In this document: one piece after another, positions 6,553 through 54,475 of the stretch | Position numbering within the stretch: the first letter of the stretch is position 1 | How the letters are laid out: every line of letters starts with the position of its first letter | Source of the DNA: Pseudomonadota bacterium | GTDB lineage: Bacteria; Desulfobacterota; JAPLJL01 | Length of the DNA stretch: 64,000 bases | Assembly: GCA_026388655.1 (NCBI GenBank) | Contig: JAPLJI010000138.1 | Location: 471-64,470 of the forward strand | Direction of reading: 5' to 3' | Notes under the pieces: model-generated | Told to the model about the DNA's origin: nothing | The model's input: only the letters and a program-made list of their open reading frames with translations | Database searches by the model: none | Program-made: the position numbers and the translations under genes

Positions 6553-7236
6553 ATGCTGATTTCTATTATCATTCCCACTTTTAATGAAGCCGGTTCGATC
6601 GCAGAAGTAGTACGAGAGGTCGCCAAACTTTCCCTCGAAAAAGAGATCCTGGTGGTGGATGATGGCTCGCAGGACGGCACTCGGTTGCTGGTTCGCAAGC
6701 TGGAGAGGGAGATCAAGGAATTGCGCGGTCTTTATTTTCCCGAGAACCGGGGGAAGGGCTTCGCGATCCGGGCCGGGATCCGGGCGGCCCGGGGCGAGAT
6801 TGTCGCAATCCAGGACGCGGATCGGGAGTATCCCCCGATTCATATCTCCAGTTTGGTCGAGGAACTAGTTCGGAATCCGGAAATCACCGCGGTTTTCGGT
6901 TCGCGGATGCTCAAGAAAAATCCGATCTCCTACCGGCGCTATTACTGGGGCGGGCGGTTTTTAACCGCGATAGTAAACCTGGCCGGGAAAGCCCACTTAA
7001 CGGATGTCACCACCGGGCATAAAGCAATCCGTTGGAAAATACTGGAGGATTTACAACTGAAAGCGGACGGTTTTGAGATCGAGATGGAGATCGTGATGAA
7101 GCTTCTCCGGCGCGGGTTTCGGATCAAAGAGATCCCGATTGAATATTCTCCCCGGGGTTTTGAGGAAGGGAAGAAGATCCGATGGACCGACGGATTGAAA
7201 TCCGTCTGGATGATAATTAACCGGGGGAAAAATTAG
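6553..7236 (+). CDS. GT2 family glycosyltransferase, polyprenyl-phosphate sugar synthase-like (DPM1/GtrB-like)
   Basis: IIIPTFNEAGSI ... VVDDGSQDGT ... DXD-type QDADRE. 227 aa. AT-rich upstream region. It is the first gene of a long plus-strand run. Confidence 0.7.
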   Translation: MLISIIIPTFNEAGSIAEVVREVAKLSLEKEILVVDDGSQDGTRLLVRKLEREIKELRGLYFPENRGKGFAIRAGIRAARGEIVAIQDADREYPPIHISSLVEELVRNPEITAVFGSRMLKKNPISYRRYYWGGRFLTAIVNLAGKAHLTDVTTGHKAIRWKILEDLQLKADGFEIEMEIVMKLLRRGFRIKEIPIEYSPRGFEEGKKIRWTDGLKSVWMIINRGKN

Positions 7237-7296
7237 CGGGATGGGATAAAGCCGGTTGGAACAAAAATTAAGCTTCCGGATTTTAACGCCAGTTCG

Positions 7297-8802
7297 ATGA
7301 AAATACTGTTTATTAATAGGATCTTAGATCGAGAGAGTCTGTATCGGGAACCATTAGGAATCCTTTATTTGTCCAGTGTCCTTAAAAAAACAGGGCACGC
7401 GACCAAGATTGTGGATGCCTGCTCTTACCCAGAGGTTGAGAAGGTGGTCAAAGAGTGGAGACCACAAATTTTTGCCTATACAATTCGGACGGGCTTCCAC
7501 CAGGAGTATCTGGAGCTAAACCGGGTATTGAAATCTCACTGGGGAGGTTTTTCGGTTTTTGGCGGTCCGCATGCCACTTTTTTCCCCCAGATAATTGAAA
7601 GCGACCCAAATGTTGACGCGGTTTGTATAGGTGAGGGTGAACTTGCCCTGGCTGATTTTGTCAACCGGATGGAGGAGCAAAAAGATTACCGTTTTTGTCC
7701 GAATTTTTGGATTAGAACCGGGGGCGAGATATATCGGAATCTTGTCCGCCCACTGGTAGAGGATATTGATTCTCTTTCCTTTCCGGATCGGGATCTGCTG
7801 ACGCCCTACCCAGGGGTGGCCAAAGCCCCGATAAAAAATTTCATTACTTCTCGGGGTTGCCCTTTTAATTGTAGCTATTGTTTTAACAAGAATTATCGGG
7901 AAATTTACCAGCAGCAAGGTTTCCTGGTTCGCCGGCGATCAGTAAATAATACTATCCAAGAAATCGCTGCGGAATTGGCAAAACGGCCTTTTGAATTGGC
8001 GCATTTTGAAGATGATGTTTTTAATCTAAACCTTGACTGGCTGGAAAATTTTTCGGACCAATACCGGAAAGAAATCGGGCTGCCCTTTTCCTGTCATCTC
8101 CGGGCCAATTTAGTCAGCGCTAAAGCGGTTTCGTACCTCAAGCGCGCCGGCTGCATCAGTGCCGCCATAGCGATTGAGACCGGAAATGATTACCTGCGCA
8201 ATGGGGTTCTCAATCGCAACATGTCCAGAGAGGAAATTCTCCGGGCCACCCGTATGATCAAGGAACAGGGGATCAGGCTGGTGACCCTGAATATGGTGGC
8301 CATTCCCGGGGGAAGCCTGGAAGCCGACTTGGAAACCCTGGATTTGAATCTGCAATCCCGGCCGGATTGCGCCATTGCCTCGTTTTGCCAGCCCTATCCG
8401 GGAACCGAATTGGGTCAGAAGGCCATGGCCGAAGGTTTGTTTGACGGGAATTATGATGGGATCAAGGGTTTCTATCATCACCCGTTAGGGGTGGGGAATC
8501 CCCGATACTCCCGCCGCCTGCAAGGGTTGTTTCCTTTGCTGGTTAATTTTCGGATCGGAAAAAAGTGGGCCCGGTTTTTCCTGCGAATCCCGCTGGAGAG
8601 AATCTCCGGGATTTTGGGTACTATCTTTATCGGCTATGTTGTAAGATTTAAAATAATGCCTTACCGGTTTCGTTTCCGGCAGTCTTTCCGGGATCTCTGC
8701 CGTTATCTGGGTTTCCCCGATTTTTTTTCGGGGGCAGTTAAAAGAAATAGGATCATTTCCCATTTTGGAGAGGAAATAGGAATTGGAAAGAAGAATGTAT
8801 GA
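7297..8802 (+). CDS. B12-binding radical SAM protein (class B rSAM)
   Basis: N-terminal MKILFI... Rossmann-like B12 domain. ITSRGCPFNCSYC CxxxCxxC motif. 501 aa. Confidence 0.8.
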   Translation: MKILFINRILDRESLYREPLGILYLSSVLKKTGHATKIVDACSYPEVEKVVKEWRPQIFAYTIRTGFHQEYLELNRVLKSHWGGFSVFGGPHATFFPQIIESDPNVDAVCIGEGELALADFVNRMEEQKDYRFCPNFWIRTGGEIYRNLVRPLVEDIDSLSFPDRDLLTPYPGVAKAPIKNFITSRGCPFNCSYCFNKNYREIYQQQGFLVRRRSVNNTIQEIAAELAKRPFELAHFEDDVFNLNLDWLENFSDQYRKEIGLPFSCHLRANLVSAKAVSYLKRAGCISAAIAIETGNDYLRNGVLNRNMSREEILRATRMIKEQGIRLVTLNMVAIPGGSLEADLETLDLNLQSRPDCAIASFCQPYPGTELGQKAMAEGLFDGNYDGIKGFYHHPLGVGNPRYSRRLQGLFPLLVNFRIGKKWARFFLRIPLERISGILGTIFIGYVVRFKIMPYRFRFRQSFRDLCRYLGFPDFFSGAVKRNRIISHFGEEIGIGKKNV

Positions 8803-9544
8803 AGAAACGGCCCGCTTTCAGGACCGGCATTGGTATTTTATCGGGATGCGGGAGATCGTATTGGGATTGTTCCAGAGGGAAAAACCGGGGCGAAACCTCA
8901 ATATCTTGGATATGGGATGTGGCACAGGGCAGTATTTTAAGGCGCTGTCTGAATTTGGAAAAGTGATCGGGACAGATATTTCCAGGGAGGTATTTCGTTT
9001 CATAAGTAGGAATGGCAACTCGGTCTTTATTAACACAGATGTGCAGAAGTTGCCGTTTAAGAATTGCCGGTTCGATCTCATTTGGGCAAGTTCAATTCTT
9101 GAGCATTTAAAAGATGACCGATTTGCCTTACAGGAAATCTATCGGGTTTTGAAGCCGGGTGGACGGGTAGTAATTGCCGTGCCCGCACATCATTTTCTCT
9201 GGGGTCATAATGACGAGTTGGCCCACCATTTACGAAGATATTCGCAGAAAGAAATCGAGGAACTCTGCCGCGCAAGCGGATTTAGGCTCATGCGTACGAC
9301 TCATTACGGGGCGGCTCCTTTTCCGCTCGCCTTCGTGGTAAGAAAAATAAAAAATGGTCTGAGCCTGATTTTCCCCAAGCTCAAGGAAATCTCGGATTTT
9401 CGCCTGGCTTCTTTCCCGGGCCTGAAGCTTTTTTTCCTTTCGGTTCTGCGTTTGGAAAAACGGGGACTGAGCCGGTTTAATCTGCCCTTTGGCCTGATGT
9501 TGTATGTCTTGGCCGAGAAAGACCTTCCCGACCCGGATAAATAG
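8783..9544 (+). CDS. Class I SAM-dependent methyltransferase
   Basis: Motif I ILDMGCGTGQYF and post-I VLKPGGRVVIAV. The start overlaps the upstream rSAM (alternative ATG at 8795). Confidence 0.7.
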   Translation: MERRMYEETARFQDRHWYFIGMREIVLGLFQREKPGRNLNILDMGCGTGQYFKALSEFGKVIGTDISREVFRFISRNGNSVFINTDVQKLPFKNCRFDLIWASSILEHLKDDRFALQEIYRVLKPGGRVVIAVPAHHFLWGHNDELAHHLRRYSQKEIEELCRASGFRLMRTTHYGAAPFPLAFVVRKIKNGLSLIFPKLKEISDFRLASFPGLKLFFLSVLRLEKRGLSRFNLPFGLMLYVLAEKDLPDPDK

Positions 9545-9726: not shown

Positions 9727-11187
9727 ATGGCAAAAATTTTATTAGCCAAGGGCACGATCCCGAAAACCATTGAATTGAAAATCGGCTATCCCCTGGGGAT
9801 TTTGTCCCTGGCCTCCGTTTTAAGAAAAAGAGGACACCGGGTAAAAATAGTAGATTGCCGATTCCAGCCGACGGATTTGGACTGGTTTCGCCGGGAGGTG
9901 GAAAGCTTTTCTCCGGATCTCGTGGGAATCTCCGGGCTGACCCCCGAGGCCGGGTCGATCCACGCGCTGGCCCGAATGGCCAAGGAAGCAAAGGTTCCGG
10001 CGGTAATAGCGGGCGGTCCTTACCCATCCTCGGATCCGGAGGCGGCGCTGTCCGATCCCAACCTTGATTACTTGATCCTGGGGGAAGGGGAGGAGACCGT
10101 CCTGGAGCTGGTGGGGAAACTGGAAGACGGACACGACATTCGGGGAGTTCGGGGAATCGCCTTCCGCGGGGAGGGAGCCGTGGCAATCAATCCCCCCCGT
10201 CCGCCGATTACCGACCTGGATGGGCTTCCTTTTCCGGCCTGGGATTTAATTGATCCCCGGAAATATTTCCGGGCCCTCCGAAGCGGGATGGTTAAACCGG
10301 GGAAATATGCCTCCATTTTTACCAGTCGGGGGTGCCCTTTTCAATGCATATTTTGTCATGGTCTTTTTGGCGAGAAATTCCGGGCCCGGTCCCCGCTCAA
10401 TATCTGGGAGGAGATCGAATGGTTGAAGAAAGACTACGGGATCGAGGAATTCCAAGTGGATGATGATTGCTTCAATTTTAACCGGAAAAGGGCGGGGGAT
10501 TTTTGCGATCTGGTCCTAAGTAAAAATCGACCGAGCCGGTTCCTTTTTCCTAACGGGTTGCGGGGGGACCTCCTGGACCGGGAAACGTTGGAAAAATTAA
10601 AAGCGATCGGAACATATTATCTCGCCCTGGCGGTGGAAACCGCCTCCCCCCGCCTGCAGGAATTGATCGGCAAAAGGCTGGATTTGAATAAAGTCGGGGA
10701 AGCCGCCCGGGAGTGCCGGCGCCTGGGTATTACCACCCTGGGGTTCTTTATGATTGGTTTCCCGACCGAAACCAGAGAAGAGGCGATGATGACTATTCGC
10801 TGGGCGGCTGAATCCAAGTTTGATCTGGCCGACTTCTTTATCCTCAACCCTTTCAAGGGAACCAGGGTTTATAAAAATTATGTCCAGCCGAAGTCTTTTT
10901 TACAGGAGGCGTATCCCAAGTTAAGGTTCGATTACCATAAAACTAATTTGAATCTCAGCGAAATTCGTGAGCGGGATCTCCCGGTCCTGCTGCGGCGGGC
11001 TTATCGAAGTTTTTATTTTCCCAGAATCCTCCGGATAGTTTTGGGTCCCCCGGGGAGAAGGTTGTCGCTTTGGCGGGGGTTGGTGATCCTGGCCAGTCGG
11101 GTTTGGTATGCAATCCTCGCTCCCGGGGAAAAGCCGGGGAAACAAATTCGGGAGGAAGGTGATGCTCGAAGCCGGCCAAATCAATAA
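9727..11187 (+). CDS. B12-binding radical SAM protein (subfamily I)
   Basis: FTSRGCPFQCIFCH, FRARSP, FPNGLRGD, ETASPRLQ, GFFMIGFPTET. Confidence 0.8.
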   Translation: MAKILLAKGTIPKTIELKIGYPLGILSLASVLRKRGHRVKIVDCRFQPTDLDWFRREVESFSPDLVGISGLTPEAGSIHALARMAKEAKVPAVIAGGPYPSSDPEAALSDPNLDYLILGEGEETVLELVGKLEDGHDIRGVRGIAFRGEGAVAINPPRPPITDLDGLPFPAWDLIDPRKYFRALRSGMVKPGKYASIFTSRGCPFQCIFCHGLFGEKFRARSPLNIWEEIEWLKKDYGIEEFQVDDDCFNFNRKRAGDFCDLVLSKNRPSRFLFPNGLRGDLLDRETLEKLKAIGTYYLALAVETASPRLQELIGKRLDLNKVGEAARECRRLGITTLGFFMIGFPTETREEAMMTIRWAAESKFDLADFFILNPFKGTRVYKNYVQPKSFLQEAYPKLRFDYHKTNLNLSEIRERDLPVLLRRAYRSFYFPRILRIVLGPPGRRLSLWRGLVILASRVWYAILAPGEKPGKQIREEGDARSRPNQ

Positions 11188-12025
11188 GAAATTTCTTCAA
11201 GTCGGTCAAGCCCGGATAGCCTTTTTCGAGAAAGGCGAGGGTCTCCCGATTGTTTTTATCCATGGACTCCCGACTTCGTCTTTCCTTTGGCGGGGGGTGG
11301 TGGAGATCGCCAGGAGCAAATTCAAATGCCTGGCCCTGGATCTTTTGGGAATGGGCGACACCGAGGTCGCTCTGAATCAGGATTATTCCATGCCGGCCCA
11401 GGCGGAAATTATCTACGGATTCCTGAAAGCCTTGAAAATACCGCAAGCGGCCATCGTCGCCCATGACCAGGGCGGGGCTTGTGCCCAGATTTTTGCGACC
11501 CGTTTTCCCCGCATGGTTTCGCATTTAATCCTGGTGGACTCGGTGGCCTATGATTACTGGCCCGTCTTTGAAGTGAGAAGAATGCAGCGGTGGTTGAAAA
11601 TACCCCCGGCCGTCTGGGCGTTGAACCTGGGTTTGAGGATTAACCGGATAAAAGTGGTAAGATTTATGTTCCGGAAGCTGGTTTTTAACCAATCGGTTCT
11701 TAGTGATGAAGTGATGGATGAATACTCAAGGACAATCGGCGCTGATCCGGAAAGGAGAGAGCGGTTTCGCAGGTTTGTTCTCGCCGGGGATGGCAAACAT
11801 ACCCTGGCGGCGGCTCCCGGTCTGGCGAAGTTTGACCGGCCCACGATGATCGTCTGGGCCGCGGAGGATAAGGTTTTGCCCGTCAGCTGGGGGGAGAGAT
11901 TGTATCGAGAGATTCCCGGGGCCCGGAGGTTCGAGCTCGTGCCGGGAGCCGGGCATCTGGTTCCCGAGGAAAAACCCGAGATTCTTGGCCGTCTGATTCT
12001 GGATTTTATCAGCTCGGAAAATTAG
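11162..12025 (+). CDS. Alpha/beta hydrolase with an Asp nucleophile (epoxide hydrolase / haloalkane dehalogenase-like)
   Basis: PIVFIHGLPTSSFLW oxyanion region. Nucleophile elbow VAHDQGGA (Asp rather than Ser). GGAGGA ribosome-binding site before the ATG at 11162. Overlaps the upstream gene by 26 nt. Confidence 0.6.
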   Translation: MLEAGQINKKFLQVGQARIAFFEKGEGLPIVFIHGLPTSSFLWRGVVEIARSKFKCLALDLLGMGDTEVALNQDYSMPAQAEIIYGFLKALKIPQAAIVAHDQGGACAQIFATRFPRMVSHLILVDSVAYDYWPVFEVRRMQRWLKIPPAVWALNLGLRINRIKVVRFMFRKLVFNQSVLSDEVMDEYSRTIGADPERRERFRRFVLAGDGKHTLAAAPGLAKFDRPTMIVWAAEDKVLPVSWGERLYREIPGARRFELVPGAGHLVPEEKPEILGRLILDFISSEN

Positions 12026-12122: not shown

Positions 12123-13679
12123 ATGGTAATAGTCTTCGTCTATTGCACCTACGAAGGTCCGGGAATCGAATACCTGTCCGCGGTACTAAAGGCGGCCGGC
12201 CACGAAACCTATCTCCTCTACGACCCCCGGTTGTTTGCCCGCGAGGAAGGCCTTCCCACCAGTAAATTATTAGCCCGCTGGTTCGATCAGCGGAAGCTTT
12301 TCCGCCGGCAGTTAAACGACTATCATCCGGATCTGGTCGCCTTCTCGGTGGTGTGCGCGGATTATCTCTGGGCCTGCGAGACCGCCAAGATGATCAAGGA
12401 ATGGATGAACGTTCCGATCGTCTTTGGAAACATTCATCCGACCGTGATCCCCGAAAAAGTCCTGAAGAATGATTTCGTTGATTTCGTGGTGGTCGGGGAA
12501 GGGGAATACGCCCTCCTGGACCTGGTGGACAGCCTTGCCGCCAAGGAGAGGGATTATTCCATCAAGAATGTCTGGTCGAAAAAGGGGGGGGAGATCGTTT
12601 CCAATCCTCTCCGCCCTCTAATCAGCGACCTGGATTCCCTGCCTTTTCCCGACCGGGACCTGTTCCGCCGGGTCGGCCGGCCTTTTGACATCGGGATCAT
12701 GGCCCTGGGGAGAAGGGGATGTAAAAACGCCTGCCCCTATTGCAGCAACAGCTTTCGGCGCAAGCTTTATTTTGGAGATGATTATCTAAATCCCGCTTAT
12801 TTGCGGAGAAGAAGCGTGGCCAACCTGATCAAGGAATTGAAGGAGGCCAAGGAGAAATACGGATACAAGTTGATCAGGTTTAACGATGACGACCTGGCGG
12901 AAAACGAGCAATGGTTAAAGGAGTTTCACCAGGAATACAAACGGGAAATCGGGGTGCCATACAAATGCTTTGTCAACCCAGAGTCCATCAATGAAAACAC
13001 GATCCGATACCTGAAAGAATCGAACTGCGGGGAGATCCAGTTCGGGATGCAGTCAACCAATCCCCAGACCCGGCGGGAAGTGTTAAGAAGGTATTATTCC
13101 AACGAACAGGTCGCCCGGGTGATCAAGTTAATCCGGGAGAGCGGGATCCCGTTCTTCATCGATAACCTGGTGGGGCTCCCGGGAGAGTCCGGCGAGGATT
13201 TGGTCAACATGGTCAAATATTATGCCGAAAACCCGGGCGGATACATAAATACCTACTGGCTGCTTTATTTTGCCGGGCACGACATGGTCCAGATCGGGAA
13301 AGACCGGGGAGCGGTCGACAACCGCGATGAGGAGAAATTCCAGGCTTCCCCGTTTTCGGATACCAATGTAATCAGGCCGGAGGTTCATCAGCGCCGACTG
13401 GAGAGATATCAGATTCTCGCGAGGGTATATAACTATTTTCCCCTGCCGGTCACCAGGTTTATCATCAAGCATAAACTTTACCGGTTTTTCCCGGGTTTTG
13501 ATTTTACCCTGTTTTTCCGAAGGCTGCGCGTATTCAAAATAACCCGGAAGGATGCCTTTCCCAATCCCAAGGATGGTTTCGAACTCATCCATCTGAGACG
13601 GCGGGATGAATATTTATTTCATCTCTCCAACAAAATTAAATCCTTATTCGATTGGGATGGGCTTCGCCGGGTCAAGTAA
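12123..13679 (+). CDS. B12-binding radical SAM protein
   Basis: GRRGCKNACPYC motif. FPDRDLF motif shared with the 7297 gene. 518 aa. Confidence 0.75.
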   Translation: MVIVFVYCTYEGPGIEYLSAVLKAAGHETYLLYDPRLFAREEGLPTSKLLARWFDQRKLFRRQLNDYHPDLVAFSVVCADYLWACETAKMIKEWMNVPIVFGNIHPTVIPEKVLKNDFVDFVVVGEGEYALLDLVDSLAAKERDYSIKNVWSKKGGEIVSNPLRPLISDLDSLPFPDRDLFRRVGRPFDIGIMALGRRGCKNACPYCSNSFRRKLYFGDDYLNPAYLRRRSVANLIKELKEAKEKYGYKLIRFNDDDLAENEQWLKEFHQEYKREIGVPYKCFVNPESINENTIRYLKESNCGEIQFGMQSTNPQTRREVLRRYYSNEQVARVIKLIRESGIPFFIDNLVGLPGESGEDLVNMVKYYAENPGGYINTYWLLYFAGHDMVQIGKDRGAVDNRDEEKFQASPFSDTNVIRPEVHQRRLERYQILARVYNYFPLPVTRFIIKHKLYRFFPGFDFTLFFRRLRVFKITRKDAFPNPKDGFELIHLRRRDEYLFHLSNKIKSLFDWDGLRRVK

Positions 13680-44942: not shown

Positions 44943-46265
44943 TCAGGTTTTATTTCGGAACAAACTGATCCCGCTCCTGATATTGTCCCAGAGTTGCGAT
45001 AGTGACTTGATCCCGGCAAGGTGATGATACATGATCCGGGGCCGCAAGTAGAATTTCCGGTGGGCCCGTCTTAATATCTTAATCCTTTGTTTCCCGCTCA
45101 AAGGAATATGATCAATGGTCGGGATCGCGGTTGCGGAACGGCTGAAAAGTATATTGAAAGACATGTAATCACAACCGGAATTGATGGCGAAATTTATGGT
45201 GTCTTGGACGGAATCCGGACTTTCGCCTGGGAGTCCCAGGATGAAATGGGCGAGGATTTTGATTTTCGATTCCCGGCAGGCCTGAAACAGAGCGCGAATT
45301 TCTTCATTGGAGATGGTCATTTTATGGATCTTCCGGACCTCCTCATTCCCATTTTCGATCCCAAACATAATCAGAAAGCATCCGGATTGTCTCATCAATT
45401 GGAGAAATTGGGGAGTAATCGTGTCGGGACGGGAATGGCAGATCCAGTTAAAATAAAGATTTTCCGCTTTCATCCGGTTGATTAAATCAAGGGTATGCGG
45501 AAGAACATTGGTCAGGCTGGAGTCCCGGAAAACCAGATTGTTGATTTTCAGGGATTGCAGGTGATGCAGCTCTTCGATAATATTCTCGACTTTTCGGAGA
45601 CGGAACCCCATCTCGGGGACGGGGCAGAAATAGCAGGAATAAGGACAGCCATAACTGGTATATGAACTTCCCCAGAGCCCGGGGTTTCCAAAGGGGAGGG
45701 AATAGCGACTGATCGGGAAAAGTTCGTACTTGGCAGCCGGAACCTCGAAAGGATCAGCGGGGCGAATCCGAGGACCGGACACAATCTCGTGGTTATTCCG
45801 GTAAATCAGATTGGGAATGGTTACCCCGGGATGGTCGAGAAACTTCAGGATGGAATCCGAGATTAAATCCAAGAGGATTCCATCAAGGAAAAGGTTTTCC
45901 CGAAAGATTTTTTCTCCCTGGAATTGGAGCATGTCGCCGGAGCCGATGAGGACGGGATGAAATCCGGTTTTGAGCTGCCGTAAAAAATCGCGATCCTCTT
46001 CCCAGGAAAGAGAGCTGGTGAGAAAAAATATCAGGTCCGGCTGGAATCGCTCGATTTCCCCGAGGGTTTTTTGAGGGGAAAGCCCGGAGGCAATCGCGTC
46101 AATCACCTTAAGGAAATGAATCTGGGAAAGGATACCGCTTTGCAGCAGCAGGTCCCCGGGCGGCCATACATATCGGGCCTTGGCGACATTGGGACAATAA
46201 TAATCACGAAGGTAGCTTTTCTTTCCGGGAGGATTGAGTAAGAGGATTTTCCGGGCGGGAGGCAT
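44943..46265 (-). CDS. B12-binding radical SAM protein (subfamily III)
   Basis: KILLLNPPGKKSYLRDYYC. YTSYGCPYSCYFC. Confidence 0.7.
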   Translation of the reverse strand: MPPARKILLLNPPGKKSYLRDYYCPNVAKARYVWPPGDLLLQSGILSQIHFLKVIDAIASGLSPQKTLGEIERFQPDLIFFLTSSLSWEEDRDFLRQLKTGFHPVLIGSGDMLQFQGEKIFRENLFLDGILLDLISDSILKFLDHPGVTIPNLIYRNNHEIVSGPRIRPADPFEVPAAKYELFPISRYSLPFGNPGLWGSSYTSYGCPYSCYFCPVPEMGFRLRKVENIIEELHHLQSLKINNLVFRDSSLTNVLPHTLDLINRMKAENLYFNWICHSRPDTITPQFLQLMRQSGCFLIMFGIENGNEEVRKIHKMTISNEEIRALFQACRESKIKILAHFILGLPGESPDSVQDTINFAINSGCDYMSFNILFSRSATAIPTIDHIPLSGKQRIKILRRAHRKFYLRPRIMYHHLAGIKSLSQLWDNIRSGISLFRNKT

Positions 46266-46291: not shown

Positions 46292-47674
46292 CTATTGCAA
46301 AAGTTCATTCTTAAAACATTGAGATAACCGTTGGGCGGATTCCAAAGTGAGGTAAGGGGATAAAAATCCTAGGTTCATTTCGATTGAACCGTTGAAACTT
46401 GTAACGGTGACGGTGTATCCCCAAGGGAAAATGCGGGGCGAAAGCAGGGAGAGACGCAGAAGCTTAGCTCCGCCCCAGTCGGAAAGCGTGGGGTCAATAA
46501 TTCCCAGGTTCGTAACTCCATTTCGAAGGTGGGAAGGTGAATGAATCCGCCGGCCGAACCAGTGGAAAAATCCTTTCACCATCGGGTAAGGCAGGATTCG
46601 GCTGCAGGCGAGAGGAAGGAGATAAGGCAACCCCGGGTTCCGGGATTTTATCCGGGAGGTTTGGGCTTTCACCTCAGCCACGGTTTGCGGGAAGGAGCCG
46701 AGTTCGGATCTGGGCACCGAGATGATTTCAATTCCACTCATATTGGCGAGCATCGCCGGATGTCCGAAAGTGCCGCGAAGATCTACCGCCATTAAAATTT
46801 CAGGATTTCCTTCGCCCTGGAAAGGATTCAAGTCGCTCCGGAAAAAAGTCCGGACCGCGGCCGCCAAAATAATATCATTAATCTTAACCTCGTATCTCCG
46901 GGCCCGGTTGTGAATTGCCAGGGCTTCATCCGGGGGAAAAAACAAATTAAGCCAGTGGAGGCGAGAATCATGACCAAGAGCAGCTGGCTTCGCGGAGGCA
47001 GAAGGCAGGAGTTGCCCGGGGTGGAATTTATGCCGGGAGGCCCAGGCCAGGGAAAAGAGGCGGAACAATATTCCAGGCCAACGGTGGATGCCGGCCTTAA
47101 GGTAGCGCGGGAAAAACCCCCGGTTTTCGGCCGGGGGGGGTTCCCGGGCATTTTCATCGGCAGGATCAAGATAACACCGGCGCATCTCATTAAGCAGAAA
47201 AAGCAGACCTTTTCCATCGGAAAAGCCATGGTGGGATTTGATTATCATTCGACTCTGGTTTGGGCCTGAAGAGAAGAGAATCCGGATCGGGGGTTGGGAG
47301 GTAAGATCCAGGCGGGAGTTAACGAAATCAATGACAGCTGGATCTTTCTCTTCCGGAAGGAAAGCGGTTGGTTTTGAACGCGATGGAAGAATTATTTTGT
47401 CAGGATCCGGAACAGGTTCAATTTGCCAACGGTCTCTTAAACTAAAGAGATCATTAATATTAAGTGTTCCCCCCGTAAGGGGAAAACGATTCAACAGCTT
47501 AGTGACCGCTTGACGCAGTCTTTGGGGTTCCAGGGGACGGTCAAAATGAAGAAAAGCGTGAATATGGAAGGGAGGGAAAGAACGGACCGAGTCTATCGCC
47601 CAAGCGACGCGGTCAAAGGCGACGGCAGGTAAAGACCTCCGCGGGGGAGAGGTGTTTCTGGACAAGTTTTTCAT
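46292..47674 (-). CDS. HHxxxDG-motif acyltransferase (CoA-dependent acyltransferase superfamily; WS/DGAT-, PapA5- or condensation-domain-like)
   Basis: SHHGFSDGKG at about residue 148 of 460, the position typical of WS/DGAT and condensation domains. The rest of the protein is unrecognised. Confidence 0.4.
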   Translation of the reverse strand: MKNLSRNTSPPRRSLPAVAFDRVAWAIDSVRSFPPFHIHAFLHFDRPLEPQRLRQAVTKLLNRFPLTGGTLNINDLFSLRDRWQIEPVPDPDKIILPSRSKPTAFLPEEKDPAVIDFVNSRLDLTSQPPIRILFSSGPNQSRMIIKSHHGFSDGKGLLFLLNEMRRCYLDPADENAREPPPAENRGFFPRYLKAGIHRWPGILFRLFSLAWASRHKFHPGQLLPSASAKPAALGHDSRLHWLNLFFPPDEALAIHNRARRYEVKINDIILAAAVRTFFRSDLNPFQGEGNPEILMAVDLRGTFGHPAMLANMSGIEIISVPRSELGSFPQTVAEVKAQTSRIKSRNPGLPYLLPLACSRILPYPMVKGFFHWFGRRIHSPSHLRNGVTNLGIIDPTLSDWGGAKLLRLSLLSPRIFPWGYTVTVTSFNGSIEMNLGFLSPYLTLESAQRLSQCFKNELLQ

Positions 47675-47911: not shown

Positions 47912-49516
47912 TTGGTTCCAACCAACTGGAAAAGTTTGTTCCCCGGGCAAAAAAATAACACGCTGGCCCTGATCCTGATTTTAGGGGCCTCCCTGGCGAT
48001 TCGTTTACGGGGGCTCGATTTTCTATTTCCTTACTTCATCGTCAACGATGAAGGCTACATGGTAAATTCAGCCTTGAAAATTCTGCAGACCGGCGACCTG
48101 GATCCGGGCTTTTTCAAGTATGGCGGCTTCACGATTTATCTGACCGCGGCGCTTTATTTCATTTACTTCAAGGTTGTCGGTTGGTGGGGCGGCCCTATCG
48201 AAGCGATGCCGTTTTTCTATGAGGATCAAAATTTCATTCTTTTCATGTTGGGCCGAATCATGTGCGTCGGATTCGGCCTGCTCATCATCTGGACCGGATA
48301 TCTTCTGGGAAAAAGAGTTTTTGGTCGCGGGGTAGGGCTTCTAACCGCGATTTTGCTGGTCTTATCCCCTCTCCAGATCGATCGATCGCAGGTTTTTAAC
48401 GTGGATGGGATCATGACATTATTTATCTTGTTGTCGGTGTATTTCGCATTTGAGATTAAGGAAAGAGGCGGCTGGAAGGGATATCTCGGGGGAGGGATCT
48501 TTGCGGGGCTGGCCCTGGCCACGAAATACAATTTTGTCGCCATCGTGCCGGTTCTGGTGGGGCATTATTTCCGGGTGGGCCAAGATGGGAAAAGGTTTGG
48601 CCAGGCGGTTTTTGATCTTCGGTTGTGGGTTTCCATTTGTTTGTATTTATTCATATTCGCCTTTTTTAATCCTTATTTTTTCCTGAATTTATCGCATGTC
48701 CTGAAAGAGATGGTTTTTTTTCTGGGGATACATTTCAAACCCCAGCTTTCTTATTTACATTCGCTTATTTACCAAAAATATATTTTTCAGCTCTTTTTGC
48801 TTTTCCCGGCCATTTTTAGCCCGTTTCTTTACCTGGCCTCCTGGGTGGGAGTGGGCTGGCTGGTCCGTGAGGATAAGGCCAAACTAGTATTATTGCTATC
48901 CTTTCCTTTCTCTTATTTTTTGGTGCTAGGGGCAATATCATATGCCTCCTTCTATACGCATTATTTCCCGCTTCTTCCTTTCGTGGTTTTGCTGGGTTCT
49001 TACTTTTTTCAACAAGCCCTAAAAAGCCGGGTTTTATCCTTTCGAATTATCAGCGGAGGTCTCCTGGTTTTATCCCTGCTTTTTTACCTTTCGAATTTTT
49101 TCTTTCCCCAGTACCGGCCCCTTTTTGATATCCACCAGGACCTGGGAAAGTGGCTGGAACAAAGCGTAAAACCGGATGAAAAAGCAATCCTGACCGGCTG
49201 GTTTTTTCCTCCCTCACGAAGTTTCTGGCAGGGGCGATATCAACGGACGGCTCGGTCATCGGGTTTTAACGATGAGTTAATCAAGTCGGGCGGATACGAT
49301 TATATCGTGGTGTTAGCGGCTGAAACCTTGGAGAAAGACGCCGGATTTTTCCATTCTCAAGAGGGATGGGAAACCTCAGAAAAATTACGAGAGGGAAGAT
49401 TTAATTACCGGCTGGCCGAAACGATCAATTTTCCTCCGTGGTGGCAGAAGGGGGCGGAACTGGTTTTTCCTCTTCTCCGGGGTTACCGGTTTGAGATTTA
49501 CCGGAGGATGAAGTGA
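47912..49516 (+). CDS. GT-C fold membrane glycosyltransferase, PMT/ArnT-like
   Basis: TTG start. VNDEGYMVNSALKIL loop. FKYGGFTIYL. LATKYNF. 534 aa. Confidence 0.65.
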   Translation: MVPTNWKSLFPGQKNNTLALILILGASLAIRLRGLDFLFPYFIVNDEGYMVNSALKILQTGDLDPGFFKYGGFTIYLTAALYFIYFKVVGWWGGPIEAMPFFYEDQNFILFMLGRIMCVGFGLLIIWTGYLLGKRVFGRGVGLLTAILLVLSPLQIDRSQVFNVDGIMTLFILLSVYFAFEIKERGGWKGYLGGGIFAGLALATKYNFVAIVPVLVGHYFRVGQDGKRFGQAVFDLRLWVSICLYLFIFAFFNPYFFLNLSHVLKEMVFFLGIHFKPQLSYLHSLIYQKYIFQLFLLFPAIFSPFLYLASWVGVGWLVREDKAKLVLLLSFPFSYFLVLGAISYASFYTHYFPLLPFVVLLGSYFFQQALKSRVLSFRIISGGLLVLSLLFYLSNFFFPQYRPLFDIHQDLGKWLEQSVKPDEKAILTGWFFPPSRSFWQGRYQRTARSSGFNDELIKSGGYDYIVVLAAETLEKDAGFFHSQEGWETSEKLREGRFNYRLAETINFPPWWQKGAELVFPLLRGYRFEIYRRMK

Positions 49517-50154
49517 AACCGCGAAATAAAATCATCCTGGTGGTTCCGCCGGTGAAGCCCGGGGGGGATCGTTTTTTAACCTCTTCGGTCAATGCTCCCC
49601 ACATGGGATTGGCCTATCTGGCGGCGGTTTTACAACAGGATGGATTCACGGTGGAGGTTTTAGACGCGCAGATCGAAAAGCTCAGCTTGAGAGAATTCGC
49701 CCGGGCGGTGAAGAAGATTAATCCGGAGGTAGTGGGAATTACCGCTTTCACCGAACAGGTTGAGGAAGCCGGGTTGGCCGGCAGGATCATTAAGCGGATA
49801 AATCCGGATATTCCCGTAATCGTGGGGGGGTGCCATCCCACCGCCCTTCCGGAACTTACCTTGAAGGAATTCCCTGATTTTGATTTCGCGGTTTTTGGGG
49901 AAGGGGAGGTAACTTTTTTAGAGGCGGCCCGAGCTCTCCGGGAAGCGGGGTCATTAAGGGGGATTTTGGGGGTGGCCGGCCGGAAGGCCGGAGAGATCTG
50001 GGTTAATTCTCCCCGTCCCTTCCTCCCGGATTTGGATGCGCTGCCTTTCCCGGCCTTCGAGCTTTTTCCCTTAAAAAGGTATCCGGCTTCTTATCGCTTA
50101 TCGAAAAAATATCGGGAGATTCCCATCCAGGCGTCCCGGGGCTGTCCGTATTAA
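49513..50154 (+). pseudogene. Truncated B12-binding radical SAM gene. The N-terminal B12 domain only; the ORF stops immediately after ...QASRGCPY.
   Basis: 213 aa, highly similar to the N-terminus of the 22456 gene (FTEQVEEA, IVGGCHP). The stop falls inside the CxxxCxxC motif and the rest of the gene is absent. Confidence 0.6.
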
Positions 50155-50198: not shown

Positions 50199-51605
50199 AT
50201 GGCTCGAATCGCTTTAATCAAGTGTTCCCTTCCCCCGAGCTTTAACCTTCTGGTCTCTCCGCCCCTGGGAATAATGTATATCGCCTCGGTCCTCAGAGAG
50301 CAGGGACACGAGGTTAAGATCCTCGACTCAAGGTTTAAGCCGGGCCGGCCGGAGGGATTTCGCGATGAGCTTAAGGTTTTTTCCCCCGAGATCGTAGGGC
50401 TTTCCGCGCTCACCCAGGAGTCAGATTCCCTGCATCGTTTCGCCGGACTGGCCCGGGAGATTCCGGGGGTGAAGGCGATTGTCGCGGGGGGCCCCCATCC
50501 CTCCGCCTACCCGGAGGAGGTTCTTTCCGATCCCCGGGTCGATTGGGTTGTGATCGGGGAGGGGGAAGAGACAATCCGGGAACTCGTCGAGGTCTTGATG
50601 TCGGGGGGGGAACCGGACCGGATCCGGGGGATCGCCCGTCGGGAAGGGGGAAGGGTGGTCAGAAACGAGCCCCGGCCCTATATCGCAAACCTGGACCAAC
50701 TGCCGTTCCCCGCCTGGGACTTGATCCCGCTCCCTGCCTATGCCCGGGTGAAAAGAAATGGGAATCTTCCGAAACGGAGATATATGTCGTTGATGACCTC
50801 CCGGGCTTGCCCCTATGACTGCATCTATTGTCACAAGCTTTTTGGTCGGGGCTTCCGGCCCCGGAGCCCGGAGAGTGTGATCGAGGAATTCGAGCGGCTT
50901 TATCGGGATTATGGGATCCGGGAATTCGAGGTGATCGACGATATTTTCAACCTGGATCTTCCCCGGGTAGAGGAGATCATCAGGTTGATCGGGGAGCGCA
51001 AACTGAAGATTCGCCTGGCCTTTCCGAACGGTCTGCGCGGGGACCGCTTGAATTATAATTCTTTAAAAATGATGAAGGAGGCGGGAACCTATTTCGCCGC
51101 CCTAGCGGTGGAAACCGCTTCCCCCCGTTTGCAGGAGGTGATCGGGAAGAAACTTGATCTCGAACGGGTTCGCCAGGCGGTGGAAGACTGCCGGAAATTG
51201 GGGATCACGACCATTGGTTTTTTCATGCTGGGTTTTCCGACCGAAACCTTGGGGGAGGCCAGAAAAACGGTGGAATGGGCCTGGTCCTCCCGGCTGGATT
51301 TCGCTACTTTTTTCATGGTTGTTCCCTACGGGGGGACCCCCATGGGCGAAAAATTCAATTCCAACAACTATCTCTCCCCGCGGCCTTTTCGTTTTGCGGA
51401 TCTGGACTTCCATCAGGGTTTCATCAATTTGAGCGAGGTACCCGACGCGGATCTTTTCGCCCTCCAGAGGAAAGCTTACCGCCGCTTTTACCTTTCCCGG
51501 GCCGGATCGCTCTTTTTTCGGGGCGCTTTCCTGGACGTGTCGTTCGGAGACGGGCTTAGACATTTTACCCTCCGGGCCTGGAAACGGGCGAGGGGATTTC
51601 ATTAG
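50199..51605 (+). CDS. B12-binding radical SAM protein (subfamily I; close paralog of the 21053 gene)
   Basis: MARIALIKCSLPPSFN.... MTSRACPYDCIYCH. FPNGLRGD. ETASPRLQ. Confidence 0.8.
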   Translation: MARIALIKCSLPPSFNLLVSPPLGIMYIASVLREQGHEVKILDSRFKPGRPEGFRDELKVFSPEIVGLSALTQESDSLHRFAGLAREIPGVKAIVAGGPHPSAYPEEVLSDPRVDWVVIGEGEETIRELVEVLMSGGEPDRIRGIARREGGRVVRNEPRPYIANLDQLPFPAWDLIPLPAYARVKRNGNLPKRRYMSLMTSRACPYDCIYCHKLFGRGFRPRSPESVIEEFERLYRDYGIREFEVIDDIFNLDLPRVEEIIRLIGERKLKIRLAFPNGLRGDRLNYNSLKMMKEAGTYFAALAVETASPRLQEVIGKKLDLERVRQAVEDCRKLGITTIGFFMLGFPTETLGEARKTVEWAWSSRLDFATFFMVVPYGGTPMGEKFNSNNYLSPRPFRFADLDFHQGFINLSEVPDADLFALQRKAYRRFYLSRAGSLFFRGAFLDVSFGDGLRHFTLRAWKRARGFH

Positions 51606-51616
51606 CCGAGGGCACC

Positions 51617-52108
51617 ATGAGAGTCATGCTCATCATTCCCCCCCGGATCAAGAGCCGCCATCGGGATTTCGCCCTTTATTACTCGAATCCTCATATCGGG
51701 ATGGCCTACCTGGCGGCGGCGCTCCGGGAGAAAGGCCATTCGGTCAAAATGATTGATGCTCAGGCCCAGGAGCTTTCATTCGGCGATCTGCAGACCCAGG
51801 TGACGGTTTTTTCCCCCGAATTCGTAGGGATCACGGTTTATACCGAGCAAATCGAGGAAGCCGGTAATGCGGCTCGGGGGATTAAAAGCTGGAATCCGGC
51901 AGTTCCAATTATCATCGGCGGGTGCCAAGCTTCGACGCTGCCGCGCGAGACCCTGGAAAAATTCCCCCATTTTGACCAGGTGATCCGGGGCGAAGCGGAA
52001 GATCAAGATCGGAATTGGCCTGTTGAAAGAGTTGTATTGGGGGCACAAGGTGCCGGCGGGTTTCTGATGGCGGTTAAAATAATCCGGGTTGGCGGCCTCA
52101 GGGCATAA
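51617..52108 (+). pseudogene. Truncated B12-binding radical SAM gene (subfamily II N-terminal domain, about 130 aa, then out-of-frame sequence)
   Basis: MRVMLIIPPRIKSRHRDF ... YTEQIEEA ... IIGGCQ, then similarity is lost and the ORF terminates early. Confidence 0.55.
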
Positions 52109-52137
52109 TTAATAATGCGCGTATTATATTAGTAAGG

Positions 52138-52719
52138 CCGAAGGTCAAAAGCGATGGGATCCAACCGGTTTTAGGTTTGGGATATCTCGCCGCCCAAATT
52201 CGGCAGAATGATGAGGTAAAGATATTAAATTGCATTAAAGAGAATTTTTCCTTGGGCCGATTCAAACGGTATCTGGCCGATCAGAAGCCCGAGGTGATTG
52301 GCCTTCAGGTCCAGCTGGATTTAATCATCGGACATCCCGGGGAAACCGAAAGGGAGATCGAAAAATCCTTGAAAATGGTTCTGGCCTGGGATCCCGATTA
52401 CCTGGTCTGGGCGCGCCTGGTTCCCTACCCGGGAACGAGGGTGGCGGAGGAAATGAAAGCGCGGACCGGAAAGGAAGAATTCTCCGGGGTGCCCTGGTCT
52501 TCCTACCAGAAACAGATCAAATCCGCTTTGGGAAACCTGGGCCTCACCCCGGAAACTCTCGGACGCTGGCAGATCAGGGGGTATGTAAAATTTTACCTTC
52601 GGCCCGGAAAAATCCTGAATCTTTTTCGTATCGTTCGCCTCCGGGTCTTGTTTTTATCCGTCTGGTATCAAATAAAAAGAATTTTTCCGAGGGGATCCAC
52701 CGGTTGGATGTCTCATTGA
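52138..52719 (+). pseudogene. Internal-deletion derivative of a radical SAM gene of the 37455 type. An N-terminal segment is fused to a C-terminal segment and the rSAM core is missing.
   Basis: GIQPVLGLGYLAAQIRQNDEVKILNCIKE matches SIQPILGLGYLAAQLKKNQEVKILDCIKE of the 37455 gene. It then jumps to C-terminal-type sequence (GHPGETEREIEKSL ... YVKFYLRP). There is no CxxxCxxC. Confidence 0.55.
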
Positions 52720-52816
52720 TTAATTCGTATCGAATCATACCCCCGGGGCTACCGTATTTTTCGCCGTTGACTAGATATGTTTTTAGCAGGGTGGGATCTG
52801 CGCAGGAAGAGGGCGT

Positions 52817-54475
52817 ATGATGCGGACTTATAAAGCAAACCAAAGCCAAACCCTTTCTAGCCGGTTGGGTTCGATTTTAAACAAGGAGAATTGGTTTTTT
52901 ATTTTTGTTTTTCTCCTGGCATTAATTTTGCGAATTAAAGATATAGGTTTGTTTCTTCCTTATTTCGAAGCCGGGGATGAAAAATTTCTAGTTGAATCAT
53001 CTTTAAATATCATTCGGACGGGGGATTTAAACCCGCATTTTTTCTGGTATGGATCCTTTCCGATTTATTGGATCTCGGCAATCTATTACCTGGTTATTCT
53101 GATTTTATGGCCTTTTTCAAACCAATCATCGTTAGCGAGTTTTATCGAGAATCTACATATTCATGATTACCATTGTTTGTTTTTCTACATCGGAAGAATC
53201 ACCTCGGTTTTATTTGGCTTGCTTACAATTTATCTCCTTTACGTGGTCGGGAAAAATCTATTTGGGAAAAAAACCGGGAAAATAATCCTATTTTTATCCT
53301 CCTTCAATGTTTTTCATGCATTTCTTTCTCAGTTTTTTAAGGTGGATATTTCCCTTTCCTTTTGGATCCTGGCTACGGTTTATTTTGCTTTGAAAATTTT
53401 AGAAAGCGGGAAAATCATAAATTATGTGCTGGGAGGGATCTGCATGGGATTGGCCATGTCAACCAAATATAATTTTCTGGCCTTTATCCCGTTGGTGGTT
53501 GCCCATATTTTGAAGGATAAAAATTTGAAATCAATATTTGATTTAAAGCTTTTTCTCGCCGGTTATGTGGCAGCGGTCACATTTATCGTGACCTGCCCGT
53601 TTTCAATTCTGGATTTTAAGGATTTCTATTCACAATTGTATTTTCAGATGAAAACTCTTCAGCAAGGTCCTTATGACCCGATGAGCTTTTTAACCGGGAT
53701 TCCCTATTTGGCTCCTTTGATCGCTATCGGGGGTTCCGATCCCTTGATCGCTTTTTCCTCGGTATTCGGGCTGATAATAGTTTTTCGAAAGGATTGGAGA
53801 TCGGCCGTTTTGGTTTCTTGCTTTCCGGTAATATATTTCATTTTCGCTTTTGGGGTTTCGAAACTGCCAAATCCCCAAAACATTTTCCCGACATTTCCTT
53901 TCCTGGTAATTTTCTCTGGATTTTTTTTCAAGCAATTTTTTGAAAGTAATAGACCGCGATATCGGCATCTGGCCGTCGGGATTTTTATTTTAAATATTAT
54001 TTTTCAAATTTTATTTTATTTTATTTATTTACCTCCTTATCAAGCTTGGGAATATCCTTACAAGGAATCTGTTAAGTGGATTGAAAAAAATATAGATAAA
54101 AATTCCATCGTCATGAGTTACTATGGCAGCCCTGGGAATTTCAGGTATATTAAAGGTTCTTTCGGGTTCGCTCAGGAGTACATGATTAGACCAAAACTAA
54201 AAAACTATGAAGAAAACCTGGTAAAATTTAAACCGGATTTTCTAATCCTGATGAATTGGGGAATGGAGAATCAAAGCAATGACGATTTTAAGGCGTATGG
54301 AAATTGGGTGAATGCCATACTTAAAAAACCATTTTCCGATTACTGTTTGATTAAAGGGTTTTATTTGCCTAAAATCTATCGGGGGATTTCGGAGAAATTT
54401 ATCCCGGTCAGTGAAAATTATGGTTTGTTGATTTTTCAGAGAAAAGAAGTACAAGGGTGCGAAAAGGAAAGTTAG
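52817..54475 (+). CDS. GT-C fold membrane glycosyltransferase, PMT/ArnT-like (lower G+C)
   Basis: GDEKFLVESSLNII loop. NPHFFWYGSFPIYW. MSTKYNF. 552 aa. Confidence 0.65.
   Translation: MMRTYKANQSQTLSSRLGSILNKENWFFIFVFLLALILRIKDIGLFLPYFEAGDEKFLVESSLNIIRTGDLNPHFFWYGSFPIYWISAIYYLVILILWPFSNQSSLASFIENLHIHDYHCLFFYIGRITSVLFGLLTIYLLYVVGKNLFGKKTGKIILFLSSFNVFHAFLSQFFKVDISLSFWILATVYFALKILESGKIINYVLGGICMGLAMSTKYNFLAFIPLVVAHILKDKNLKSIFDLKLFLAGYVAAVTFIVTCPFSILDFKDFYSQLYFQMKTLQQGPYDPMSFLTGIPYLAPLIAIGGSDPLIAFSSVFGLIIVFRKDWRSAVLVSCFPVIYFIFAFGVSKLPNPQNIFPTFPFLVIFSGFFFKQFFESNRPRYRHLAVGIFILNIIFQILFYFIYLPPYQAWEYPYKESVKWIEKNIDKNSIVMSYYGSPGNFRYIKGSFGFAQEYMIRPKLKNYEENLVKFKPDFLILMNWGMENQSNDDFKAYGNWVNAILKKPFSDYCLIKGFYLPKIYRGISEKFIPVSENYGLLIFQRKEVQGCEKES

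Follow-up and report, generated by a model that had tools for sequence, protein, structure and literature searches.

What is made by a gene island in which 18 divergent radical S-adenosylmethionine (rSAM) enzymes of class B stand among five membrane glycosyltransferases of the GT-C type? The question is raised by contig JAPLJI010000138.1 of the Pseudomonadota bacterium assembly GCA_026388655.1 (GTDB lineage Desulfobacterota; JAPLJL01), of which we analysed the 64,000 nucleotides (nt) from 471 to 64,470. We call this stretch the window, give all coordinates in it, and name genes by their lower coordinate. An initial annotation had placed a tailoring battery at 6553-54475. The content inside that range is largely borne out, and the limits are wider: the island starts at 5342, with a ferredoxin gene, ends at or beyond 55461, and measures about 50 kb. 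It is real, functional and uncharacterised; its component superfamilies are known, and their combination and behaviour are new. Near-identical contigs were seen in two Sequence Read Archive (SRA) runs, two European Nucleotide Archive (ENA) assemblies and Joint Genome Institute (JGI) metagenomes, and a metagenome-assembled genome (MAG) from Lac Pavin sediment is ∼84% identical. With about even confidence we read the island as a hypervariable system tailoring a surface glycoconjugate, that is, as lipid-carrier-dependent periplasmic glycosylation in which polyprenyl-phosphate sugars or their acceptors would be diversified by radical chemistry.

Domains were called from the open reading frame (ORF) listing and Pfam scans of the window, with the gathering score as threshold, and from NCBIfam at its curated cut-offs. 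The expected B12-binding, Radical_SAM, PMT_2 and glycosyltransferase family 2 (GT2) domains hold in the Pfam scans. Eighteen intact class B rSAM ORFs of 440-518 amino acids (aa), rather than the 17 counted previously, each carry a CxxxCxxC motif and a full-length match to Radical_SAM (PF04055):

7297..8802, plus strand: class B rSAM, singleton type (Radical_SAM and B12-binding matches)
9727..11187, plus strand: class B rSAM, subfamily I (51% identical to the rSAM of a triad in MAG STA_72)
12123..13679, plus strand: class B rSAM, singleton type (Pfam; dN/dS 0.07-0.11 against L011 and L007)
14133..15545, plus strand: class B rSAM, subfamily I (Pfam, motifs)
19653..21044, plus strand: class B rSAM, subfamily I (Pfam, motifs)
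21053..22459, plus strand: class B rSAM, subfamily I (Pfam, structure model and Foldseek)
22456..23868, plus strand: class B rSAM, FTEQVEEA type (Pfam, motif)
26343..27743, minus strand: class B rSAM in the low-GC cassette, GC 0.29 (Pfam)
31808..33238, minus strand: class B rSAM, subfamily I (Pfam; dN/dS 0.10 against strain L051)
33235..34752, minus strand: class B rSAM (Pfam; dN/dS 0.24)
34704..36134, minus strand: class B rSAM (Pfam; dN/dS 0.15)
36139..37470, minus strand: rSAM, subfamily III, with a diverged B12-like N-terminal domain (Radical_SAM match, hhalign; dN/dS 0.24)
37455..38945, minus strand: class B rSAM with a strain recombination breakpoint (Pfam; comparison with L051)
40204..41733, plus strand: class B rSAM (Pfam)
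41752..43155, minus strand: class B rSAM (Pfam)
43457..44893, minus strand: class B rSAM (Pfam)
44943..46265, minus strand: rSAM, subfamily III (Radical_SAM match, hhalign)
50199..51605, plus strand: class B rSAM, subfamily I (Pfam, motifs)

A single architecture had been proposed for all loci, decayed copies included. The B12-binding domain (PF02310) exceeds its gathering score in 16 of the 18 intact proteins, and the other two, 36139 and 44943 (the PPG..YLRDYYC type), give no PF02310 match at E ≤ 1e-3. Aligned by hhalign with the B12 domain of the paralogs, the N-terminal domain of these two matches with 97% probability (E 7e-11, 19% identity), and on this sequence comparison it is a diverged version of the common class B architecture. 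The decayed copies retain the architecture in part. Subfamily I was recovered with its six predicted members (9727, 14133, 19653, 21053, 31808 and 50199), which are 38-57% identical and share the motifs quoted for them (FRxRSP, FPNGLRGD, ETASPRLQ and GFFMLGFPTET) with minor variants. The FTEQVEEA motif, taken as the mark of a second subfamily, is present in 22456 and in remnant 49513 alone. All pairs outside subfamily I are 21-38% identical, and the whole set spans 21-57%. With identities this low, the paralogs cannot have arisen by recent tandem duplication; they are ancient and not recently amplified.

All 18 proteins stay below the curated cut-offs of every NCBIfam family, with best scores of 90-224 bits against cut-offs of 251-775. 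The named families compared were BchE, HpnJ, HpnR, the ladderane-type TIGR04072, PhpK, ApyD, MgmA, BzaD, AprD4 and the TsrM type, with the best sub-threshold scores for BchE, HpnJ and ApyD. Likeness of this kind to HpnJ, HpnR and TIGR04072 would fit the tailoring of membrane lipids, with rSAMs acting on hopanoid, ether or other lipids to methylate, cyclise or cross-link their hydrocarbon chains or their head groups, and the GT-Cs and GT2 adding head-group sugars. The island also encodes an acyltransferase resembling the wax ester synthase/diacylglycerol acyltransferase (WS/DGAT) type and an alpha/beta hydrolase, and the majority of the lipid-modifying rSAMs so far characterised belong to this general kind (PMC13459092). 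We nevertheless consider this explanation improbable. The scores of 90-224 bits stand against lipid-family cut-offs of 360-750, and Pfam scans of the window found no squalene-hopene cyclase, hpn, fab, pls, polyprenyl synthase or ether-lipid genes, so the lipid precedents offered by the initial annotation (HpnP/HpnR, ladderane-type) do not apply as families. Core membrane-lipid pathways are, moreover, not expected to exchange cassettes between sibling strains, as is described for this island below.

The AlphaFold2 (AF2) model of 21053, the one paralog modelled, has a mean predicted local distance difference test (pLDDT) of 91.6. Its top 17 Foldseek matches in the PDB are solved class B enzymes (TsrM, AprD4, MgmA, CysS, OxsB and TokK) with template modelling scores (TM-scores) of 0.62-0.72. 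The closest structure by TM-score is AprD4 (0.72), which was solved with the aminoglycoside pseudodisaccharide paromamine bound. AprD4 has the class B fold, yet works without cobalamin, so that the fold alone does not settle cobalamin use in the island enzymes. The ratio of nonsynonymous to synonymous substitution rates (dN/dS) is 0.07-0.30 in all 16 orthologous comparisons. This indicates that the island genes are in use and under purifying selection, and rules out a pseudogene graveyard for the intact genes.

A tblastn search with four paralogs recovered exactly three further loci, the number of decayed copies expected:

49513..50154, plus strand: truncated rSAM, B12-binding domain only (PF02310 92.9 bits)
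51617..52108, plus strand: truncated rSAM, B12-binding domain only (Pfam, tblastn)
52177..52719, plus strand: rSAM remnant with an internal deletion (tblastn)

The first (tblastn match at 49528-50151) corresponds to residues 2-209 of a 22456-like protein and stops just short of the Cys motif; its PF02310 score is the best in the window. The second (51617-52003) is an N-terminal piece comprising residues 1-129, and in the third (52120-52665) residues 10-72 are fused to residues 338-459. All three retain open reading frames, with lengths that vary among near-identical strains (160, 152 and 215 aa in L116). Since both lengths and 3' ends vary in this way, a role of the B12-only ORFs as conserved stand-alone corrinoid proteins is unsupported.

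The rSAM genes are accompanied by a ferredoxin, a GT2 and the five GT-Cs:

5342..6496, minus strand: EFR1-family 4Fe-4S ferredoxin (NCBIfam NF038196, 105.3 bits against a cut-off of 75)
6553..7236, plus strand: soluble GT2, candidate polyprenyl-phosphate-sugar synthase (PF00535, 104.8 bits)
15561..17183, plus strand: GT-C, PMT_2/GT39-like (PF13231, AF2, Foldseek)
17412..19001, plus strand: GT-C (PF13231)
24517..26346, plus strand: GT-C in the low-GC cassette, GC 0.21 (PF13231)
47912..49516, plus strand: GT-C (PF13231)
52817..54475, plus strand: GT-C (PF13231)

PF13231 is matched by all five GT-Cs at 45-52 bits (gathering score 26.1), and each has 7-11 hydrophobic segments. For the AF2 model of 15561 (pLDDT 89.8; predicted TM-score, pTM, 0.89) the first 37 Foldseek matches, which include every match with E ≤ 0.13, are GT-C enzymes: STT3, ArnT, ALG9/12/3, AglB, Pmt1/2/4, PglB, PimE, AftD and Emb. 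The acidic motif of the first extracytoplasmic loop, LPYF-x3-4-DE, is strongly conserved in 39 GT-C homologs, with D51 invariant and E52 at least 90% conserved. The subfamily of 15561 is narrow (21 representatives at ≥30% identity). The adjacent genes 15561 and 17412 are 88% identical at the nucleotide level over 300 nt (15711-16010 versus 17535-17834), whereas their proteins are only 50% identical overall, which looks like gene conversion across the catalytic-loop region.

The MIR domain was not found by Pfam in any of the five GT-Cs at E ≤ 1e-3. They are therefore not protein O-mannosyltransferases (PMTs) proper, and the label PMT-like was too strong, as ArnT, STT3 and ALG9 are resembled about equally. 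This bears on whether the GT-Cs might O-glycosylate proteins in the manner of PMTs, acting on giant PA14/LamG or other secreted proteins while the rSAMs and methyltransferases decorate the donor sugars. We judge this unlikely: true PMTs carry the MIR domain, the structural match of Pmt4 is equalled or bettered by those of ArnT, STT3 and ALG9, and the PA14 protein of the window is not rich in Ser and Thr (S+T 0.10-0.18 per 100 residues). Giant secreted proteins do lie directly downstream of the last GT-C in the window and in a sibling strain, and there are PMT as well as PMT_2 matches and Pmt4 among the structural ones; in two loci described below, a triad in STA_72 and a Patescibacteria locus, the stretch seen contains no neighbour of this sort. 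Protein O-glycosylation is in any case a variant of glycoconjugate tailoring with another acceptor, and not a full alternative to it.

No transmembrane (TM) segment was found in the GT2. Its best NCBIfam similarities are to AglJ (108 bits against 325), Dol-P-hexose transferase, PpgS and ArnC, all below cut-off. Judging from the fold of the GT-Cs and the neighbouring GT2, the GT-Cs would use a polyprenyl-phosphate-linked sugar donor. The ferredoxin gene lies outside the range first annotated and is divergent from the GT2 gene. The divergent ferredoxin-GT2 pair recurs in STA_72 (ferredoxin 89% identical in nucleotides and 83% in amino acids, GT2 81% in nucleotides); since it is retained there despite different outer flanks, the ferredoxin belongs inside the unit. 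It is probably the dedicated electron donor of the rSAM set. Hydrophobic segments follow its Fe-S domain, and the protein may be membrane-anchored.

In the STA_72 island the ferredoxin/GT2 pair is followed by one methyltransferase, a run of four GT-Cs, another methyltransferase, five rSAMs, a fifth GT-C and one more rSAM. As it shares the ferredoxin-GT2 anchor and differs otherwise, the gene content of the island is fluid. STA_72 also has a stand-alone triad beside aspS, made up of the rSAM already mentioned, a GT-C 56% identical to 15561 and a methyltransferase. We take the functional unit to be one GT-C, one subfamily-I rSAM and usually one methyltransferase. Every GT-C of the window has an rSAM adjoining it or one to two genes off, usually with a methyltransferase; the rSAM is of subfamily I for four GT-Cs and is 26343 for the GT-C of low GC. 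Twelve further rSAMs are of other types, and ten of these lie at 33-46 kb, where there is no GT-C. On this view about five modules are stacked in the island, together with a 12-gene block of further rSAM types.

The association recurs elsewhere. Among GTDB species representatives with a GT-C at least 52% identical, an rSAM adjoins the GT-C at 4/4 loci, and same-sized contigs occur in the rSAM and GT-C match lists alike. An Elusimicrobiales locus holds a GT-C, an rSAM and a GT2 together, and in the cultured Desulfatibacillum aliphaticivorans a 45%-identical rSAM lies beside a methyltransferase and a 573-aa protein with 10 TM segments. Scanning metagenomes with a subfamily-I profile gave 80 loci; of the 48 that extend over at least 8 kb, 25 have two or more class B rSAMs and nine have four or more. 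A Pfam census of 92 non-class-B neighbours in 15 metagenomic arrays independent of the window's population counted 16 other rSAMs (10 with a SPASM domain), 7 GT2, 6 PMT_2, 2 YfhO, 6 methyltransferases, 3 GDSL lipases and 2 carbamoyltransferases, and a separate neighbour scan one DUF2079 protein and several sub-threshold PMT_2 matches. The rSAM density of the window (0.38 per kb) is similar to that of other arrays. Because rSAM arrays with GT2, PMT_2/YfhO and methyltransferases recur, the window is an extreme instance of a recurrent, uncharacterised cluster type.

In Patescibacteria assembly GCA_018830295.1 (L113) a class B rSAM is encoded, at ∼6.3-21.4 kb, amid Bac_transf, three GT2s, a SPASM rSAM, a Wzx-type flippase and a methyltransferase, together with two weak PMT_2-like proteins and an LPG_synthase_TM protein. 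The GC content of the locus is 0.28-0.32, against 0.43-0.48 in its flank. This rSAM locus is plainly a surface-polysaccharide locus. The partnership of rSAMs with GT2 and GT-C enzymes proposed from the window is upheld by a triad found in unrelated contexts and by 15 arrays enriched in GT2, PMT_2/YfhO and methyltransferases; rSAM arrays with GT-C/GT2 genes were found in MAGs, metagenomes and Patescibacteria.

The composition of the island is mosaic, with GC content of 0.18-0.57 inside it versus 0.57-0.65 in the flanks. Within a cluster of ∼50% GC, an 8-kb block at 23.8-31.8 kb has GC of 0.18-0.30 and GC at third codon positions (GC3) of 0.16-0.23. Besides rSAM 26343 and GT-C 24517, it encodes:

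23865..24533, plus strand: class I methyltransferase, first gene of the low-GC cassette, GC 0.26 (junction confirmed in L001 and L002)
27740..29992, minus strand: polytopic membrane protein with a central spermine-synthase-like SAM-dependent domain, low GC (PF01564, residues 318-432)
29997..31781, minus strand: 594-aa protein with ∼6 TM segments and a C-terminal repeat domain, low GC (no Pfam family)

Functionally, the five genes of the block fall into the families that make up the rest of the island. In 27740, TM segments flank the Spermine_synth domain on both sides. The C-terminal repeats of 29997, judged by eye from the translated sequence, resemble a YVTN beta-propeller. The best non-self homolog of rSAM 26343 is 42% identical, and its named matches are mostly from Patescibacteria; with no relative closer than 42% identity, a donor of the cassette was not found. 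A chimeric assembly behind the low-GC block is ruled out, both junctions being present at 99.9-100% identity in contigs of independent runs.

A sibling strain (L051/L114) is 98.6% identical to the window down to 38569, inside rSAM 37455, and then 79% identical in nucleotides across five rSAM genes; the drop falls between 38569 and 38420. Beyond 31830 this strain has a different low-GC cassette, with an rSAM at 42% identity, a protein of the 594-aa type at 36%, and a further rSAM and a methyltransferase at 29-35%. Its 594-aa-type protein is the one full-length relative of 29997 among 1.84 billion representatives. Between the strains, one cassette has taken the place of another, with the recombination breakpoint lying within a gene. 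Loci for surface-exposed antigens are marked by just these features: an anchor that is conserved, an interior of low GC and mosaic composition, cassettes that alternate among strains occurring together, and breakpoints inside genes. Strain-level hypervariability is the strongest clue to a surface-exposed product.

The genes were described as packed in co-directional runs with overlaps and minimal spacers. Packing is indeed tight, with many 4-nt overlaps, but six gaps of 182-453 bp exist and hold repeats. None of the gaps contains a credible peptide ORF, the small ORFs there being repeat-derived or implausible, and Pfam scans of the window found no peptidase, ATP-binding cassette (ABC) or peptidase-containing (PCAT) exporter, YcaO or Lan-type gene. 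These results make it very improbable that the rSAMs C-methylate or cross-link a ribosomally synthesised and post-translationally modified peptide (RiPP) encoded in or near the island. Such a role could be argued from the sub-threshold likeness to ApyD and to the RiPP C-methyltransferase family TIGR03975, and from the 10 SPASM-domain rSAMs among the neighbours in other arrays. The partners in the island are glycosyltransferases, however, and the Patescibacteria SPASM rSAM lies between GT2 genes in a polysaccharide locus, so the doubt cast on a RiPP role from the outset was justified.

The 453-bp gap between two rSAM genes holds adjoining tandem arrays at 13799-13962 (24 nt in 3.2 copies and 33 nt in 2.5 copies); a 157-aa ORF spanning them (13606-14079) belongs to no family and is probably spurious. 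In strain L007, a 23S_rRNA_IVP gene lies upstream, between the hydrolase and rSAM 12123. Two copies of a 100-nt intergenic element, 77% identical, lie at 17227-17326 and 43249-43348. In L007, which is 96-98% identical, the interval that holds the first copy is swapped for a shorter unaligned stretch; this points to a small mobile repeat. The element was rejected as a structured RNA (no Rfam match and weak fold z-scores). Rfam and transfer RNA scans of the window gave no matches, and the signals of a promoter and terminator scan were no higher than the shuffled background.

The other genes of the island and its downstream flank are:

8783..9544, plus strand: class I SAM methyltransferase (Methyltransf_11/25/23)
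11108..12025, plus strand: alpha/beta hydrolase, haloalkane-dehalogenase/epoxide-hydrolase type (Abhydrolase_1)
19004..19645, plus strand: class I methyltransferase (Pfam)
39245..40207, plus strand: class I methyltransferase (Pfam)
46292..47674, minus strand: HHxxxDG acyltransferase-like protein, condensation/WS-DGAT superfamily, weak matches (HHGFSDG at residue 148)
54553..55461, plus strand: membrane protein with 8 TM segments, unit membership uncertain (no family found in Pfam or NCBIfam)
55670..60469, plus strand: giant secreted or anchored protein with a PA14 domain, context only (PF07691; signal-like N-terminus, C-terminal TM segment)

All the partner genes foreseen by the initial annotation were found: five PMT_2 GT-Cs, a GT2, four class I methyltransferases, an alpha/beta hydrolase, an HHGFSDG protein and a membrane Spermine_synth protein. 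The hydrolase scores 115 bits with NCBIfam PRK03592, under its cut-off, and 46292 matches TIGR02946 (E 2.6e-9, below cut-off) and the Condensation domain (E 1e-3). The protein 54553 trails the last GT-C in sibling strains also; hhalign gave no significant sign that it is a hidden GT-C. The PA14 protein is possibly an acceptor or an unrelated adhesin. A second giant secreted or anchored protein runs from ∼60490 to beyond 64000, and its version in a sibling strain has faint PA14 and Laminin_G_3 matches. Upstream of the island, at 1535-5123 on the minus strand, an operon encodes an extracytoplasmic function (ECF) sigma factor, an anti-sigma factor and a 766-aa secreted protein with a caspase domain (Peptidase_C14); it is kept in sibling strains and not in STA_72.

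A mechanism can be proposed from what has been shown: the domains and folds of the proteins, the recurrence of the module, purifying selection, a mosaic composition and the replacement of a cassette. In the scheme we infer, for its chemical steps, topology, ferredoxin and acceptor alike, the soluble GT2 would load a sugar onto polyprenyl phosphate at the cytoplasmic face of the membrane. Cytoplasmic rSAMs, probably drawing electrons from the EFR1 ferredoxin, and class I methyltransferases would then tailor the lipid-linked sugar, its precursor or the acceptor. The likely reactions would be C-methylation and O-methylation, with dehydration, epimerisation and ring rearrangement as further possibilities. 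There are precedents among class B rSAMs for work on sugars or a phosphoglycolipid, namely GenK, GenD1, Fms7 and MoeK5 (PMC9204698). After flipping, the five GT-Cs would transfer the tailored sugars to an acceptor outside the membrane, perhaps a glycan, the head group of a lipid, or a surface protein, for which the giant PA14/LamG proteins are candidates. As modules and cassettes are exchanged between strains and across lineages, the structure displayed would be strain-specific.

Several results weigh against this reading. Pfam scans of the window found no nucleotide-sugar synthesis gene, initiating phosphoglycosyltransferase, Wzx/Wzy or ABC exporter, nor was there a GtrA-like flippase, with no ORF of 60-200 aa with at least three hydrophobic segments at 5-56 kb. 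The pathway is incomplete as encoded in the window. The substrate of the rSAMs cannot be read from sequence, none matching a named family. Eighteen rSAMs for five GT-Cs far exceed the tailoring needs of any known sugar. A GT-C was detected in only 4/48 of the metagenomic loci of at least 8 kb, by a narrow local hidden Markov model (HMM) that under-detects distant GT-Cs, and for the 573-aa neighbour in Desulfatibacillum hhalign gave no significant sign of a hidden GT-C. The rSAM-GT-C link is frequent and not universal. Hypervariability and low GC, finally, fit a surface structure without proving one.

We advance a more specific version of glycoconjugate tailoring only tentatively, and would not be surprised to see it fail. 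Each module of GT-C, rSAM and methyltransferase might make a differently C-alkylated or rearranged sugar and attach it from a polyprenyl-phosphate carrier; the rSAMs, not ordinary glycosyltransferases, would be the variable element, modules would be traded between strains and phyla, and cells would show heavily radical-modified, strain-specific glycoconjugates. Surface glycans would then be diversified in a manner not described before.

If the rSAMs do tailor carrier-linked sugars, a large store of new sugar reactions at unactivated carbons would become accessible, and many orphan class B rSAM arrays, for example in anoxic-sediment metagenomes, would be explained. They would also constitute a new axis of surface-antigen variation, relevant to the evasion of phages and predators in sediments. 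Class B is among the largest rSAM classes, with known reactions for only a few dozen members (PMC9204698). The initial annotation knew of no characterised cluster in which so many class B rSAMs are combined with PMT-like GT-Cs, and a full-text literature search, partly off-target, gave no counterpart. Reviews of class B and of lipid-modifying rSAMs list no such cluster (PMC9204698, PMC13459092), and the lipocone paper mentions neither rSAM nor GT-C. Clusters of this type recur in uncultivated anaerobes, Patescibacteria among them, and none has been characterised; the island is an extreme, well-delimited case. The minimal locus of the cultured D. aliphaticivorans, with its rSAM, methyltransferase and membrane protein, makes the question experimentally approachable.

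How does the island compare with known systems? Three-component periplasmic glycosylation is represented by GtrA/GtrB/GtrC in O-antigen glucosylation, CsbB/GtcA/YfhO for teichoic acid, ArnC/ArnE-F/ArnT for lipid A and PpgS/Rv3779 in mycobacteria. The island resembles these systems in having a small GT2, a candidate polyprenyl-phosphate-sugar synthase, next to GT-C transferases with an acidic first-loop motif, and PMT_2 and YfhO occur in related arrays. It differs in lacking a GtrA-like flippase, in having five GT-Cs for one GT2, which itself falls under every curated cut-off, and in its 18 class B rSAMs with a dedicated ferredoxin, which none of those systems is known to possess. O-antigen and capsule loci are hypervariable, low-GC, horizontally exchanged islands. 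Conserved anchors, a variable interior, a lower and mosaic GC content, alternative cassettes and breakpoints within genes are common to them and to our island; in contrast to them, its window has no Wzx/Wzy, ABC transporter, initiating transferase or nucleotide-sugar genes, and its variable genes are rSAMs rather than GT-A or GT-B glycosyltransferases. Proteusin (polytheonamide) RiPP clusters, with PoyB and PoyC, likewise have several class B rSAMs per cluster and many modifications, but there a few rSAMs act repeatedly on a precursor, whereas the island has no precursor, 18 divergent rSAMs and glycosyltransferase partners. The enzymes GenK, GenD1 and Fms7 (aminoglycoside C-methylation), MoeK5 (moenomycin), AprD4 (paromamine dehydratase) and HpnJ have the same three-part architecture and fold as the island rSAMs, and the substrates in these precedents are sugars or a phosphoglycolipid; identity of the island rSAM to the solved class B enzymes is only 16-22%. 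In clusters for antibiotics or hopanoids these class B precedents are found alone or two together, not as arrays beside GT-Cs.

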